A stretch of 32,000 bases of DNA. Origin: an uncultured archaeon. Lineage in GTDB: Archaea > Asgardarchaeota > Thorarchaeia > Thorarchaeales > Thorarchaeaceae. The stretch covers positions 167,208 through 199,207 of the forward strand of contig CAYHAA010000004.1 in the NCBI GenBank assembly GCA_964354495.1, in the 5' to 3' direction. A program made the translations under genes and the position numbers. How positions within the stretch are numbered: position 1 is the first letter of the stretch; each line of letters opens with the position of its first letter. Below, in pieces: positions 4,581 through 8,397 of the stretch. The notes below the pieces were generated by a model. The model did not search any database and was not told the origin of the DNA. It was given only the letters and a program-made list of their open reading frames with translations.

Positions 4581-5621
4581 TTGAGTCCAGATTGGTTGAT
4601 GTCAAGGCTGACTGTTGTATTGATTGCCATAGCCGGTCCTATCTATTTCTTCTTGCTGATGCTATTCATCCCGCAGATGATGCCCTTTGCTGATTCGTTC
4701 TTTAATCTGCTTTTTCACTATCTTGCAGCACCTATCGTCTTCTCTTTGCCCTGGGTGGGCACAATCTATTACCAGCGGTACAGGCTAGCAAATACTGCCC
4801 ATATCATGGATGAAACCATCACCGCAGTTCCTCTCAGATGGAGAATGTTCTATGGAGCAAATGCTCTCTTTGTCCTGATGTTGTTCGTACTGCCCATGGC
4901 CACACCTGTTATCGCGATTATAGAAGGACTCGTTGTTGCTGTGCATGTGTTTCGTCTCATTGGCCTTGGTAAGCTGGGAGGTGGCAAGCCAGCTGCTTTC
5001 CTTGGCATCATCGTGGCACTGGCGCTCATCATACTTCCAGCACTCGTGATGTTTGTGTTCATTCCTGGCTATATGGTCGTATGGAACACGATTCTCCAGA
5101 CATGGACTGATTTCTGGCTGGATGTCACATATGGTGTTGCGCAGTGTCTCGTGAATGCCCTCAGCTTTGGTGCCCCTGTCTATTTCATCTACTATGGTGC
5201 TCAGGAGTATGATAGAGGGCTCTATGGGGAAGTGTACACAAAGACGCCGACAATTTGGATAAGACTGGGAGAACTCATCATCTTCTCCATATTCCTGGTG
5301 ATTTACCTACCGCCAATACCAACACCTCTTGGAGTCGTCCCTTTTCTGGGGCTCTCATTCCTCTTTCAGGACTACATCAACTGGATTTCTCTTGTAATAG
5401 TATCCATCATGGTCCTAGTTAAGATAGTTCTCAGGGTCAAGAGAGACAGCACAATGGGCGGAGCGACTAACATCATTGTTATCGGACTGTTTCTCGTAGT
5501 TGAGCTCTTCAATAGGACTGACTTCTTCCTGAAGACCTCGGTAATCCTGTTGGCATTCATTGTCTATGCGGCGCTCGCAATCGCAAGCTATCTCAGAGCC
5601 TCTCCAAGAGAGCTTTACTAA
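4581..5621 (+). CDS. Hypothetical polytopic membrane protein (about 9-10 TM segments)
   Basis: 346-aa ORF made largely of hydrophobic stretches of about 20 aa; has its own promoter; no recognised motif. Confidence 0.8.
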   Translation: MSPDWLMSRLTVVLIAIAGPIYFFLLMLFIPQMMPFADSFFNLLFHYLAAPIVFSLPWVGTIYYQRYRLANTAHIMDETITAVPLRWRMFYGANALFVLMLFVLPMATPVIAIIEGLVVAVHVFRLIGLGKLGGGKPAAFLGIIVALALIILPALVMFVFIPGYMVVWNTILQTWTDFWLDVTYGVAQCLVNALSFGAPVYFIYYGAQEYDRGLYGEVYTKTPTIWIRLGELIIFSIFLVIYLPPIPTPLGVVPFLGLSFLFQDYINWISLVIVSIMVLVKIVLRVKRDSTMGGATNIIVIGLFLVVELFNRTDFFLKTSVILLAFIVYAALAIASYLRASPRELY

Positions 5622-5659: not shown

Positions 5660-6019
5660 CTACATATTAATTATATCGAATTTCTTGGTGAGCCGAATGA
5701 TGGGGAGAAAGACCGTCATCGGTTCGGACTCCGCAAACGTGTCAACAAACTCGATAGTCTCTTTTGGTCTGCCCTTATACGCAATGAAGTTGCCCTTCGG
5801 GGGTCCGTCACCCTCTGCATGAACCCAGAGAGGCAATCCATACATCTCATAGTATCCATGATTGGAGATCAGGGTCCCATAGATATGCTTCCCCTTGTGT
5901 TCGAAATATAGCATACTCGCAGGTCGTTCTCTCTGCGACCAAGAGACAAGCATTCTTACCAGATCAATCATAGAAGCTATCTTCATGTTCACAGGGGGTC
6001 GAATACTATCACTGCTCAT
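5660..6019 (-). CDS. Small conserved archaeal hypothetical protein (alternative start ATG 5986)
   Basis: Pattern KHIYG..YY..YGLPL...PII.L recalls small uncharacterised crenarchaeal/TACK proteins (from memory). TTATAA at 6056-6061 lies upstream. Confidence 0.7.
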   Translation of the reverse strand: MSSDSIRPPVNMKIASMIDLVRMLVSWSQRERPASMLYFEHKGKHIYGTLISNHGYYEMYGLPLWVHAEGDGPPKGNFIAYKGRPKETIEFVDTFAESEPMTVFLPIIRLTKKFDIINM

Positions 6020-6093: not shown

Positions 6094-8397
6094 TCAGCCA
6101 GAGGCATGAAGGGCAGCTCGTATCTTGTCAGCAATGGAGATGACTGACTTTCGGCTGGCACCAACAATGACAATTGGCAAGCTCAATAGCGACTGGCTAG
6201 TGGCAATCGAAAACACTATGCGAACACCCTCTCTTCGATAGCAGACAAAAGTGAAACCATCTTCATGAATCATCTGCTCAATCTCTACCCCGGTAGAGCC
6301 TATTGCACCTGCAGCGAAACTGATGAGACGTGACGCATCACCATCTTCGCGGTTCACAACAATGGTATCTCGAATGTCATGCTCTGAAGAGAAGAGAAAA
6401 CCATGGGATGCCGAACTATACAGAACCTTCCTTGTTATTGCCTTCGAGAGAAGGTCCTTCGAAACCGGGCCAAATGCCTTCACGAGTACCTTTGAAGAGT
6501 CAAAGTCAGAGATTCTGATTGCTTCAATCTCAACTTCGGAAGGTATGACCTCATCTGTGATGACAGGTTCCTCAAGGCGAGGCGATGGTTCATCGGTGAT
6601 GGAGAAGCCCTGCTTCTGGTGATCAAAGAGGGTCTTGACGTAGTCTCGCATCCACTCATCGAGAAGCAGCCAGTCCTCTTTGCTCAACTTCAGGGGAGGT
6701 CGAGGCACCTCTGGCAACTCCTCAGCAAAGGCCTCTTCCGAGCCCTCGTACTGCTCCTCTGATTCCTCAGTCGGCTCAGCCACCTTGTCCTCTTCGGACG
6801 GCGTTGTTTCCGCGGGAGTCTCCTCTGGCATTAGGAGATTGACAGCTTCAAAGAGACCCGATAGTCGATCTGTGCCACCATGTTGTGAGAGCCGCGGACG
6901 GACTTGTATGATGAAACCGCGCCTGTTCTCAGTGGCCTGATCGAAGACTAGGGCAACGCCTTGCGGAAGACCGCTGATGAACGCCTTGTCACGGAACTGC
7001 TCTGGCATCACAGCTGGAGCTCGATGTTGTAGAGCTCTAATGTCATCATCATGGGACAGTGAGTGTGAGATGATGATATCTGCCTGTGAGATTGCTTCAT
7101 CTGAGACTGCTGACGGTTGCTGTGTGCACAGGACAAGACTACAGCCAAACCTTCGTCCAAGCTTTGCATAGCCTACAATCGCATCCTTGGCAGGGGTGGC
7201 TCCTGACCGTGGCACAAGTGTGTGTGCCTCATCAATGATTAGCCACGTGGGAGGCAGTTCTTCCCGTGCACTGGTACCTTCATCAGTCCAGGCCATTCGA
7301 TAGGTCAGGACTTGACGGCATAACATGTTTGTCAGAATCGCGAGCACGGCTTCAGCATCTGAACCAAGAGGTGCAACATCAATGACTGTGATTTGCCCTG
7401 CAACAGATAGATCCTGAGCGCTTGTGCCGCCAGGATTGAAGACTCCTAGTCTATCTGCACGCCTTAGCCTCTGGATAATAGCAGTTCTTGAGGCAGGCTT
7501 GTAGAACTCAACAATGGTTGGATTGGACTCGACACAGCTGATCATATCTGTGATGCTGAAATCCCGCTTGAGCTGCACATGCTCTCCAGACTCGAGAGTG
7601 TATCCCTTTCGCACAGCGTCCAAGGTCTCAGCTATCAGGTTCTCCATGGCAGTACTGAGTGTGCCGCCTTTCTCCAGCACATATCCCCAATCTGAAACGG
7701 AGAGCTCTCGGGGTCCAATGGACAATGGAAAGAGACGAGCTTTTTTCTTCACCTCATCAGGGAGTCCAACGTATGTCCTCCGAGGGATGTAGACATTCAC
7801 TGGGAATCCCTTTGCCTCATAGCCCCACTTCTTGAGAATATCTGCCTGCTCGTCATTTGGATCGACCATCTGTCGAAAGACATCTACTGTGTCCACAATG
7901 ACTGCAGCAACCTCAATCTCTCGACGCTCCATGGCTAGGGCAAGTTCTTCAGCAATGATTCCCAGCGTATAGCTCTTACCTGATCCCCTCTTTCCTGCAA
8001 CAAACATGACATGAGGTTTCATGAGGTCAAGCTTCACTGGCATCCCCATGAGGGAGGTCAGAACATCATCGGAGGTCTCTGTGATACCTCCTATCATACC
8101 CAGACCGACAGAGTGGTATTTTCGATGGAATGACTCGGAACGGCCAAGGACTACTCCAACGCTGAGGTCGATGTGCAGGTCGAGAAGGTCACCTACGCGT
8201 GGATGGTATGGTAATACGGACTTTGGAAGTAGGTCAATTGGTCTATCTGAATCTCGCCGACTCTCGGGATCTTCTTCTTCTGGCGTGTCTGGATTTCCCG
8301 GTTCGTTCAACTGTGCACCTCCTGACGACTCTGTCTTGACCTCGGATAAAGCTTGGCTTGATAGTGTCTTGACGCGCGATTCGTACCCAGAATCCAA
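6094..8397 (-). CDS. HerA/FtsK-superfamily (DUF87-type) P-loop ATPase with acidic linker and extra C-terminal domain
   Basis: Walker A GKRGSGKS preceded by PHVMFVA, Walker B LIIDEAH, GRRFG arginine-finger region, TQQPS, QADIIISH. TTG start, bounded by an in-frame TAG at 8410-8412. Confidence 0.85.
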   Translation of the reverse strand: MDSGYESRVKTLSSQALSEVKTESSGGAQLNEPGNPDTPEEEDPESRRDSDRPIDLLPKSVLPYHPRVGDLLDLHIDLSVGVVLGRSESFHRKYHSVGLGMIGGITETSDDVLTSLMGMPVKLDLMKPHVMFVAGKRGSGKSYTLGIIAEELALAMERREIEVAAVIVDTVDVFRQMVDPNDEQADILKKWGYEAKGFPVNVYIPRRTYVGLPDEVKKKARLFPLSIGPRELSVSDWGYVLEKGGTLSTAMENLIAETLDAVRKGYTLESGEHVQLKRDFSITDMISCVESNPTIVEFYKPASRTAIIQRLRRADRLGVFNPGGTSAQDLSVAGQITVIDVAPLGSDAEAVLAILTNMLCRQVLTYRMAWTDEGTSAREELPPTWLIIDEAHTLVPRSGATPAKDAIVGYAKLGRRFGCSLVLCTQQPSAVSDEAISQADIIISHSLSHDDDIRALQHRAPAVMPEQFRDKAFISGLPQGVALVFDQATENRRGFIIQVRPRLSQHGGTDRLSGLFEAVNLLMPEETPAETTPSEEDKVAEPTEESEEQYEGSEEAFAEELPEVPRPPLKLSKEDWLLLDEWMRDYVKTLFDHQKQGFSITDEPSPRLEEPVITDEVIPSEVEIEAIRISDFDSSKVLVKAFGPVSKDLLSKAITRKVLYSSASHGFLFSSEHDIRDTIVVNREDGDASRLISFAAGAIGSTGVEIEQMIHEDGFTFVCYRREGVRIVFSIATSQSLLSLPIVIVGASRKSVISIADKIRAALHASG

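Follow-up and report, generated by a model that had tools for sequence, protein, structure and literature searches.

A predicted TBP-like tail domain on a HerA-type ATPase of Thorarchaeota and its possible role as a docking ear

The stretch of DNA analysed here (32,000 nucleotides; hereafter the window, to which positions refer unless another locus is named) encodes a HerA/FtsK-type ATPase on its minus strand, and this report concerns the C-terminal domain of that protein, called the tail domain below. The genes at the locus stand in the order divergent TrmI methyltransferase gene, ATPase gene, a gene for a protein of 119 amino acids (aa), a convergent gene for a 346-aa membrane protein, and pyrF, and the same order is found at a syntenic Thorarchaeal locus (L002). 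An original prediction, made by eye from the sequence, had assigned the last ~94 residues of the ATPase to a KA1-like or TBP-like domain. The segment flagged in this way, positions 6094-6376 (minus strand), comprises the stop codon and the final 93 codons of an open reading frame (ORF) at 6094-8397, whose translation terminates ...SRKSVISIADKIRAALHASG. Residue numbers throughout are those of this longest ORF (P0001) and not those of the shorter product that starts at TTG 8310. The longest ORF itself opens at TTG 8397; in the alignment, all homologues start 29 codons inside it, at the residue that 8310 encodes, and a GGAGGT closely precedes TTG 8310. The homologue starts and this GGAGGT imply that the real protein has 738 residues (6094..8310, minus strand; assigned from the ORF list, the translation, Pfam and the homologue starts), and the first 29 codons of the longest ORF (8308-8397, minus strand) are probably untranslated. 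Twenty-two homologues align over the whole ATPase protein; several are named Thorarchaeota by NCBI, and the host is an Asgard archaeon, a case that the original prediction had only considered.

Behind a short acidic N-terminus, residues ~60-523 (6829..8220, minus strand) form the ATPase core. The protein matched the Pfam DUF87/HerA central domain (PF01935) with 34.3 bits at a cut-off of 23.2, and the PDB sequence matches of the core were to HerA chains only (E 6e-10 to 7e-3). The Walker A motif AGKRGSGKS (7972-7998, minus strand) and the Walker B motif WLIIDEAH (7222-7245, minus strand) are both invariant in 23 homologues. In its DUF87 core above cut-off and its intact Walker A and B motifs the protein resembles the HerA/FtsK-superfamily ring translocases (PF01935; PDB 4d2i, 8xau, 7f6d), which are hexameric and act on DNA. 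It differs from them in its C-terminal module, which no other HerA in our searches bears. It also differs from the canonical HerA of HerA-NurA end resection, both in its equivalog matches and in its linked genes. All NCBIfam equivalog models scored far under their cut-offs (best 50.8 bits against 800), the canonical archaeal HerA equivalogs NF040937 and NF040819 reached 36.5 bits against 800 and 22.8 against 970, respectively, and the neighbours examined included no gene for NurA, Mre11 or Rad50.

A flexible tether had been proposed between the ATPase and its tail, and alignment and modelling agree with it. Residues 524-560 (6718..6828, minus strand) form an acidic Glu/Pro-rich linker whose length and sequence vary among close homologues (alignment columns 527-575), and residues 607-622 (6532..6579, minus strand) form a second, short linker that is also variable; the predicted local distance difference test score (pLDDT) is below 50 in both. 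The stretches that combine acidity, variable length and a pLDDT below 50 are residues 524-560 and 595-618. Between the two linkers stands an island, residues 561-606 (6580..6717, minus strand), which comprises LPEVPRPPLKLSKEDW... and an amphipathic helix (residues 573-594, pLDDT ~70), and whose motif is invariant in 23 homologues. The island is missing from the tails of the three deeper-branching relatives read, which represent two genera of the Thorarchaeal family and one genome of its sister family (G313, G324 and G311), and from the non-Thorarchaeal orthologues described below. The island, LPEVPRPPLKLSKEDW with its helix, has the look of a recently acquired short linear motif for docking.

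Predicted fold, charge and conserved residues of the tail domain

AlphaFold2 was run on residues 560-767 (run 1) and on residues 620-767 with a 30-row alignment that included more distant relatives (run 2). Residues 620-767 were modelled as a single compact domain (mean pLDDT 93.5, predicted template-modelling score 0.89). The 560-767 model showed the same secondary-structure elements, with pLDDT below 50 in the linkers and above 90 from ~640 onward. The folded unit has ~148 residues (620-767; 6097-6540), of which the flagged stretch is only the back two thirds. Its front part (residues 623-673; 6379..6531, minus strand) contributes strand 623-626 and helices 647-660 and 662-668, and carries R656 (6430-6432), Y660 (6418-6420) and L668. 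The core (residues 674-767; 6097..6378, minus strand), which is the stretch first flagged, was modelled with pLDDT 93-98 and consists of strand 675-684, helix 688-700, strands 705-712, 715-722, 725-729, 732-734 and 737-746, and helix 749-765. The order read by eye in the last ~94 residues, beta-alpha-beta4-alpha, agrees with the strand, helix, four to five strands and helix of the model, which ends in SRKSVISIADKIRAALHASG; compared with the KA1 order (strand, helix, four strands, helix), the model has one additional short strand. As modelled, the region is ordered and of the TBP-like fold class, rather than disordered or of an unrelated fold. The antiparallel sheet packed by two helices that characterizes this class is present, and phosphoglucomutase (PGM) domain 4, a MoaD-related C-domain, KA1 domains and the adaptin platform were matched at Z 6-7.5 with root-mean-square deviations (rmsd) of 2.2-3.7 Å. 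We conclude that the tail domain is, as modelled, a TBP-like two-layer alpha/beta fold with two additional N-terminal helices, where TBP-like names a class of folds and not a homologous family.

The structural comparisons were made with VIA-align against 48,161 PDB representatives, and the counts given here are for the top 50 rows obtained with the run-2 model; the run-1 model agrees. Z was 7.5 for the best row and 5.6 at rank 50, and, by the tool's own statement, a model that lacks a clear relative typically reaches a best Z of 7 to 8. KA1-type domains took 14 of the 50 rows: the C-terminal domains of Snf1/AMPK alpha (3t4n, 4eai, 4cfe, 2oox, 2y8l), Chk1 (5wi2), SAD-B (5iri), MARK1 (6c9d), MARK3 (1ul7), Kcc4 (3ost), METTL16 (9m86, 9u48) and SOS2/CIPK (2ehb, 2zfd). 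KA1 chains in the narrower sense align over 83-95 residues at Z 5.6-6.9. Adaptin and COPI appendage platforms took three rows (1w80, 3h1z, 1r4x), with Z 6.8 for alpha-adaptin 1w80 and 6.6 for gamma-COP 1r4x, and PGM domain 4 took four. Comparable Z scores were obtained for a Thermus MoaD-related protein (7.4), the N-domain of spermine synthase (7.1), aIF2-alpha, Pcc1 and a de novo designed protein (6.8). Since the Z scores lie at the tool's background and are tied with those of unrelated proteins, they imply a common architecture and are not evidence of descent.

The sequence comparisons gave no relative outside the ATPase family. No Pfam family matched the tail domain in any of 28 members at E ≤ 10, and among these sequences neither KA1 (PF02149) nor PF12092 gave a match at that threshold. 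PF02149 was also unmatched in the whole protein at E ≤ 0.01, and a genome-wide scan with it gave nothing above cut-off, only 14.1 bits for an unrelated 28-aa frame. Foldseek against the PDB returned no match at E ≤ 0.001 with either model, the best rows being the SOS2 regulatory domain (7.4e-3) and MoaE (7.9e-3). A profile search of all PDB sequences with the tail domain gave nothing meaningful (best E 0.31). The best score in an ESM Atlas feature search was 0.87, under the lead level of 0.9, and a DUF3568 cluster was among the Atlas shape matches of the model (TM 0.48). In the structural alignments, identity to KA1-type chains was 7-17%, and the 12-17% to the KA1 domains of MARK1, MARK3 and SAD-B is not above that of unrelated matches.

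The tail domain thus has three likenesses to KA1 domains (MARK/PAR-1, SAD/BRSK, Kcc4 and Chk1, with the C-terminal domains of AMPK/Snf1 alpha and SOS2/CIPK; PF02149; PDB 1ul7, 6c9d, 5iri, 3ost, 5wi2, 3t4n, 2ehb): the succession of a strand, a helix, four to five strands and a helix; the placement at the extreme C-terminus behind a disordered linker; and superposition over 81-107 residues (Z 5.6-7.5, rmsd 2.4-3.9 Å). In contrast to KA1 domains, it shows no sequence relationship by Pfam or PDB profile, it sits on a HerA-type ATPase and not on a Ser/Thr protein kinase (a Pfam scan found no kinase domain in the protein), it is neutral to acidic by bulk charge and not basic, and it has an additional strand and two helices that bear the conserved residues of the family. 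Hence, of the assignment to KA1 domains and adaptin platforms, the fold class stands (14 and 3 of the top 50 rows, respectively), whereas the kinship is not supported (Z ≤ 7.5, at background, and no sequence match). Nor does the fusion qualify as specifically eukaryote-like, because the same fold was matched equally well in bacterial and archaeal proteins.

The 94-residue core carries a net charge of -1 here (isoelectric point, pI, 6.1) and of -7 to +3 across 28 relatives, in 24 of which it is neutral to acidic with a pI of 4.5-6.8; these are bulk values, and a local patch is possible. The whole tail domain is net acidic or neutral in most members (pI typically 5-6.5), and the acidic tether adds further negative charge. 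Lipid-binding KA1 domains are strongly basic. The neutral to acidic bulk charge leaves the binding of acidic phospholipids, which had been put forward for the domain, without sequence support, and we think that the tail domain does not bind lipid as KA1 domains do.

In a joint alignment of 28 sequences from Thorarchaeota and other Asgard lineages, R656 is the only invariant residue, and Y660 and L668 are nearly invariant; all three lie in the helices ahead of the flagged core. Polar residues conserved in Thorarchaeota include H665, R676 and R726. D757, I759, R760 and L763 are the conserved positions of the terminal helix in Thorarchaeota, and the motif of this helix that the original prediction likened to that of MARK kinases is only partly conserved even there and is absent from more distant members.

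Distribution in Asgard archaea and ESCRT-III linkage of orthologues

A six-frame search of 400 Asgard genomes found the tail region in 73 of the 85 genomes of the Thorarchaeal family, weakly in the sister family, and in no other family. The region always stood at the end of an open frame of 690-775 aa, and the 11 genomes of the Thorarchaeal family without an ATPase match were also without the tail domain. The tail domain together with its ATPase is a core gene of the Thorarchaeal family, a conservation beyond what chance would give, and the domain is single-copy in this genome. A HMMER search with residues 585-767 against 1.84 billion representatives returned 15 proteins, 12 of them at E ≤ 1e-10. 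These 12 are members or fragments of the ATPase family, and the seven that were read through carry the family motifs; the three weakest of the 15 matches are giant unrelated proteins. Of the 24 matches from a profile search of longer proteins, 23 contain PF01935 and the remaining one, 271 aa long, is a fragment that belongs to the same ATPase family; the named matches came from Thor-, Hel- and Hodarchaeota.

Orthologues of the ATPase core in other Asgard families show 36-42% identity over ~440 residues (E 1e-68 to 1e-90; frames of 880-1170 aa), and ordinary HerA paralogues score about 1e-12 against the same core. Each of the nine non-Thorarchaeal orthologue tails that were read has a domain of the same pattern, and the Thorarchaeal tail domain aligned with the orthologue tail domain at an hhalign value of 96.4% (E 1e-9, 115 columns). 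Judged by these alignments, the Thorarchaeal tail domain is homologous to that of the orthologues across Asgard lineages. It is a fixed part of a single, Asgard-specific family of HerA-type ATPases, and it was not seen in any other architecture. What is new here is the confident model of the tail domain, its true boundaries, its conserved residues and its family-wide homology.

Outside Thorarchaeota, the ATPase orthologues are mostly found among genes of the ESCRT (endosomal sorting complex) machinery. In 13 of 17 non-Thorarchaeal genomes or loci, from at least seven families, an orthologue has a Snf7 gene within ~1.5 kb, and in 10 it is flanked on both sides; the 17 places are 15 genomes compared for Snf7 position, a Helarchaeote locus and locus L028. 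In the Helarchaeote, the ATPase gene stands between two Snf7 genes, which encode the membrane-cutting ESCRT-III proteins. Locus L028 runs Vps25, Vps4, Snf7, ATPase and then a 344-aa protein; genes for a small GTPase, RING, ubiquitin, E2 and E1 follow a few kb away. Pfam scans at L028, L031 and L032 confirmed the Snf7 genes, and Vps4 lies beside them in two of these loci. The Thorarchaeal protein shares with the ESCRT-III-embedded ATPases both the orthologous core (36-42% identity) and the homologous tail domain. It differs from them in three respects: its gene has left the ESCRT-III locus, a 119-aa gene follows it and not a gene for a ~350-aa helical protein, and its tether has gained the conserved LPEVPRPPLKLSKEDW helix.

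A limited search of the literature brought up no account of Asgard ESCRT loci that describes a HerA-type ATPase there. HerA and DUF87 are not mentioned in the text of an account of archaeal ESCRT loci (Makarova et al. 2024, PMC11188069). According to that account, TBP-fold, adaptin-appendage-like domains are recurrent in such loci (DUF3568/arCOG08177, 'Meth_adaptin', Asgard Vps28-C proteins), and the adaptin appendage is described as a hub at which proteins interact (Makarova et al. 2024, PMC11188069).

The sequence of the orthologues gave two side observations. In two families (f15, L015:2373-2714, plus strand; f16, L016:1360-1704, minus strand) the domain is not terminal and is followed by a Pro/Lys-rich linker and a helical hairpin of ~50 residues; a by-eye identification of this hairpin as SHOCT was dropped, as Pfam gave no match. 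An apparent Snf7-HerA fusion of 1169 aa (G125, contig C123) was also rejected, because the frame crosses 379 N (L031:4498-4876), which are a gap or a masked stretch; N runs of this kind can mislead automatic tallies of open-frame length.

Possible roles of the tail domain

Research on Asgard ESCRT systems treats them as the root of membrane remodelling in eukaryotes. Vps4 is the only motor described for them in the literature searched, where the HerA-type ATPase goes unmentioned. A ring translocase that lies between two ESCRT-III genes in many Asgard lineages, and that bears a hinge-tethered domain of the adaptin-ear-platform fold class, offers a testable handle on motor recruitment and on the coupling of DNA handling to ESCRT-III, which would fit the reported binding of DNA by Loki ESCRT-III in vitro (PMC11791191).

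We propose, with moderate confidence, that the tail domain is a hinge-tethered protein-docking ear of an ESCRT-associated motor. The proposal builds on what the analysis shows of the domain, namely its fold and tether, its restriction to one ATPase family and its homology across Asgard archaea, and on the ESCRT-III linkage of the orthologues; the binding and the identity of the partner are what we infer. The domain would hang from a tether of ~100 residues that is mostly acidic and predicted to be disordered. If the ring is the hexamer usual for HerA/FtsK proteins, it would carry six tail domains as 'ears on hinges', which may dock the motor to a protein partner: ESCRT-III, an ESCRT-III-associated protein or, in Thorarchaeota, the product of the 119-aa gene. 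Of the roles first suggested for the domain, a partner-targeting module is the most plausible remaining one.

We favour a docking ear because TBP-fold domains recur in archaeal ESCRT loci, because the appendage is described as an interaction hub (PMC11188069), and because a DUF3568 cluster matches the shape of the model (TM 0.48). The neutral to acidic core in 24 of 28 members also speaks for it. With the adaptin and COPI appendages the tail domain has in common the fold class and the layout of an ear on a hinge, and with the TBP-fold domains of archaeal ESCRT loci (DUF3568/arCOG08177, 'Meth_adaptin') the fold class and, here by way of the orthologues, its encoding together with ESCRT genes. 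However, a strand and two helices precede the platform-like core of the Thorarchaeal domain, where the appendages have an Ig-like beta sandwich, and the domain is fused to a motor ATPase, an arrangement absent from the account of the archaeal loci (PMC11188069). When the tail domain and the upstream ESCRT-III protein from one genome (G300; alignments A6 and A8) were modelled as a complex, the score was 0.21 against the tool's mark of 0.32, which counts neither way.

Several results weigh against a docking ear. The two Snf7 genes of this genome lie on contig C1, away from the ATPase gene on contig C4, so that the ATPase gene is not ESCRT-III-linked, and no ESCRT gene lies within 6 kb of the ATPase gene at the syntenic Thorarchaeal locus L002. 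Any ESCRT link of the Thorarchaeal ATPase would be carried over from the orthologues. Moreover, all structural similarities are at background level, and the fold therefore says little on function. Finally, the conservation of R656 and Y660 could equally reflect a site for a ligand or an interface with the ATPase itself.

A bolder form of the proposal, which is speculative and quite unlikely, is that the tethered ear recruits a second motor, of the HerA/FtsK type, to Asgard ESCRT-III. Such a motor might clear or pump DNA at the scission neck, as FtsK does at the bacterial septum, and the ear might represent an archaeal forerunner of the appendage-on-hinge logic of eukaryotic trafficking adaptors. 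Thorarchaeota would then have kept the machine despite the drifting apart of its genes.

We ranked four other explanations behind a docking ear, and the first is that the tail domain is an autoinhibitory or regulatory lid, which would fold back on the ATPase ring, in cis or onto a neighbouring subunit, and gate its activity. KA1 domains act in this way on the kinase domains of MARK1, SAD and Chk1, and the structural matches include KA1-autoinhibited MARK1 (6c9d_B, Z 6.4) and the AIS-KA1 fragment of SAD-B (5iri_B, Z 6.6). The finding that the tail domain never occurs apart from this HerA-type ATPase is consistent with a lid, as is the extreme conservation of both the ATPase and the Thorarchaeal tether motif. 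However, a tether of ~100 residues exceeds what a simple lid needs, and the matches to autoinhibited kinases are only at background level. We consider a lid possible but unlikely.

Decidedly improbable, in our view, is a module that binds nucleic acid and would pass DNA or RNA on to the translocase. Precedents are the KA1-like domain of METTL16, which binds U6 snRNA, and TBP, which binds DNA. The matches include the complex of METTL16 KA1 with U6 snRNA (9m86_C, Z 6.0), DNA is the substrate of HerA/FtsK motors, and one helix presents the invariant Arg together with the nearly invariant Tyr; the DNA binding of Loki ESCRT-III (PMC11791191) points in the same direction. By contrast, in most members the domain as a whole has an acidic or neutral net charge, the strongly acidic tether would be unfavourable for nucleic-acid binding, and TBP itself is not in the top 50 VIA-align matches.

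A true KA1 membrane-targeting domain, which would bind anionic lipids and bring the motor to a membrane or to an ESCRT-III scission neck, is very unlikely. Its KA1 topology at the extreme C-terminus behind a disordered linker, the 14 KA1-type matches in the top 50 and the ESCRT-linked orthologues, which suggest work at a membrane, are all in keeping with such a role. Against it stand the lack of a PF02149 match in the protein, with nothing above cut-off genome-wide, Z scores tied with those of unrelated folds, a core of net charge -7 to +3 with a pI below 7 in 24 of 28 members, where lipid-binding KA1 domains are strongly basic, and a terminal-helix motif that is not conserved across the family. 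For the window itself, then, the fold read by eye was right, and a lipid-binding, eukaryote-like KA1 function is unsupported.

Least probable of all is a small-molecule sensor, in which the domain and its additional helices would make up a helix-grip or MoaE-like pocket for a metabolite or a lipid tail and regulate the motor. START/Bet v 1-type receptors (PYR1, Z 6.7), MoaE (Z 5.7-6.0) and the SOS2 regulatory domain were matched over 98-107 residues, and the conserved polar residues R656 and Y660 (with H665, R676 and R726 in Thorarchaeota) could line a pocket. Against it, the rmsd of these longer alignments is high (3.2-3.9 Å by VIA-align, 7-11 Å by Foldseek), and no ligand-related gene is linked.

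Neighbouring genes

The 119-aa gene (5660..6019, minus strand) lies 74 nt downstream of the ATPase gene, and its product matches no Pfam family. The Thorarchaeal family has it directly downstream of the ATPase in 12 further loci read, and one genome of the sister family has it there too (33-97% identity); wherever the flank of a Thorarchaeal locus is long enough, the gene comes after the ATPase. Its product is a possible partner of the ATPase. The 119-aa gene is better conserved than the ATPase tail, with 68% identity in G324 compared with ~31% for the tail domain.

In at least two families of ESCRT-linked orthologues, the next gene after the ATPase encodes an all-helical protein of ~350 aa that belongs to no Pfam family (L032:4182-5249, minus strand; L028:8633-9667, plus strand; also L015 and L017/L034). 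Its gene overlaps the ATPase gene by 8 nt in L032 and is separated from it by 7 nt in L028, and the two copies compared share 36% identity. This helical protein is unrelated to the Thorarchaeal neighbours; in particular, the 346-aa Thorarchaeal membrane protein was considered as its counterpart and rejected (BLASTP E 6.1). The gene for the 346-aa protein (4581-5621, plus strand), which is polytopic and matches no Pfam family, is convergent to the pair formed by the ATPase and 119-aa genes, and its position is kept in seven further loci of close Thorarchaeal relatives, at 73-94% identity.

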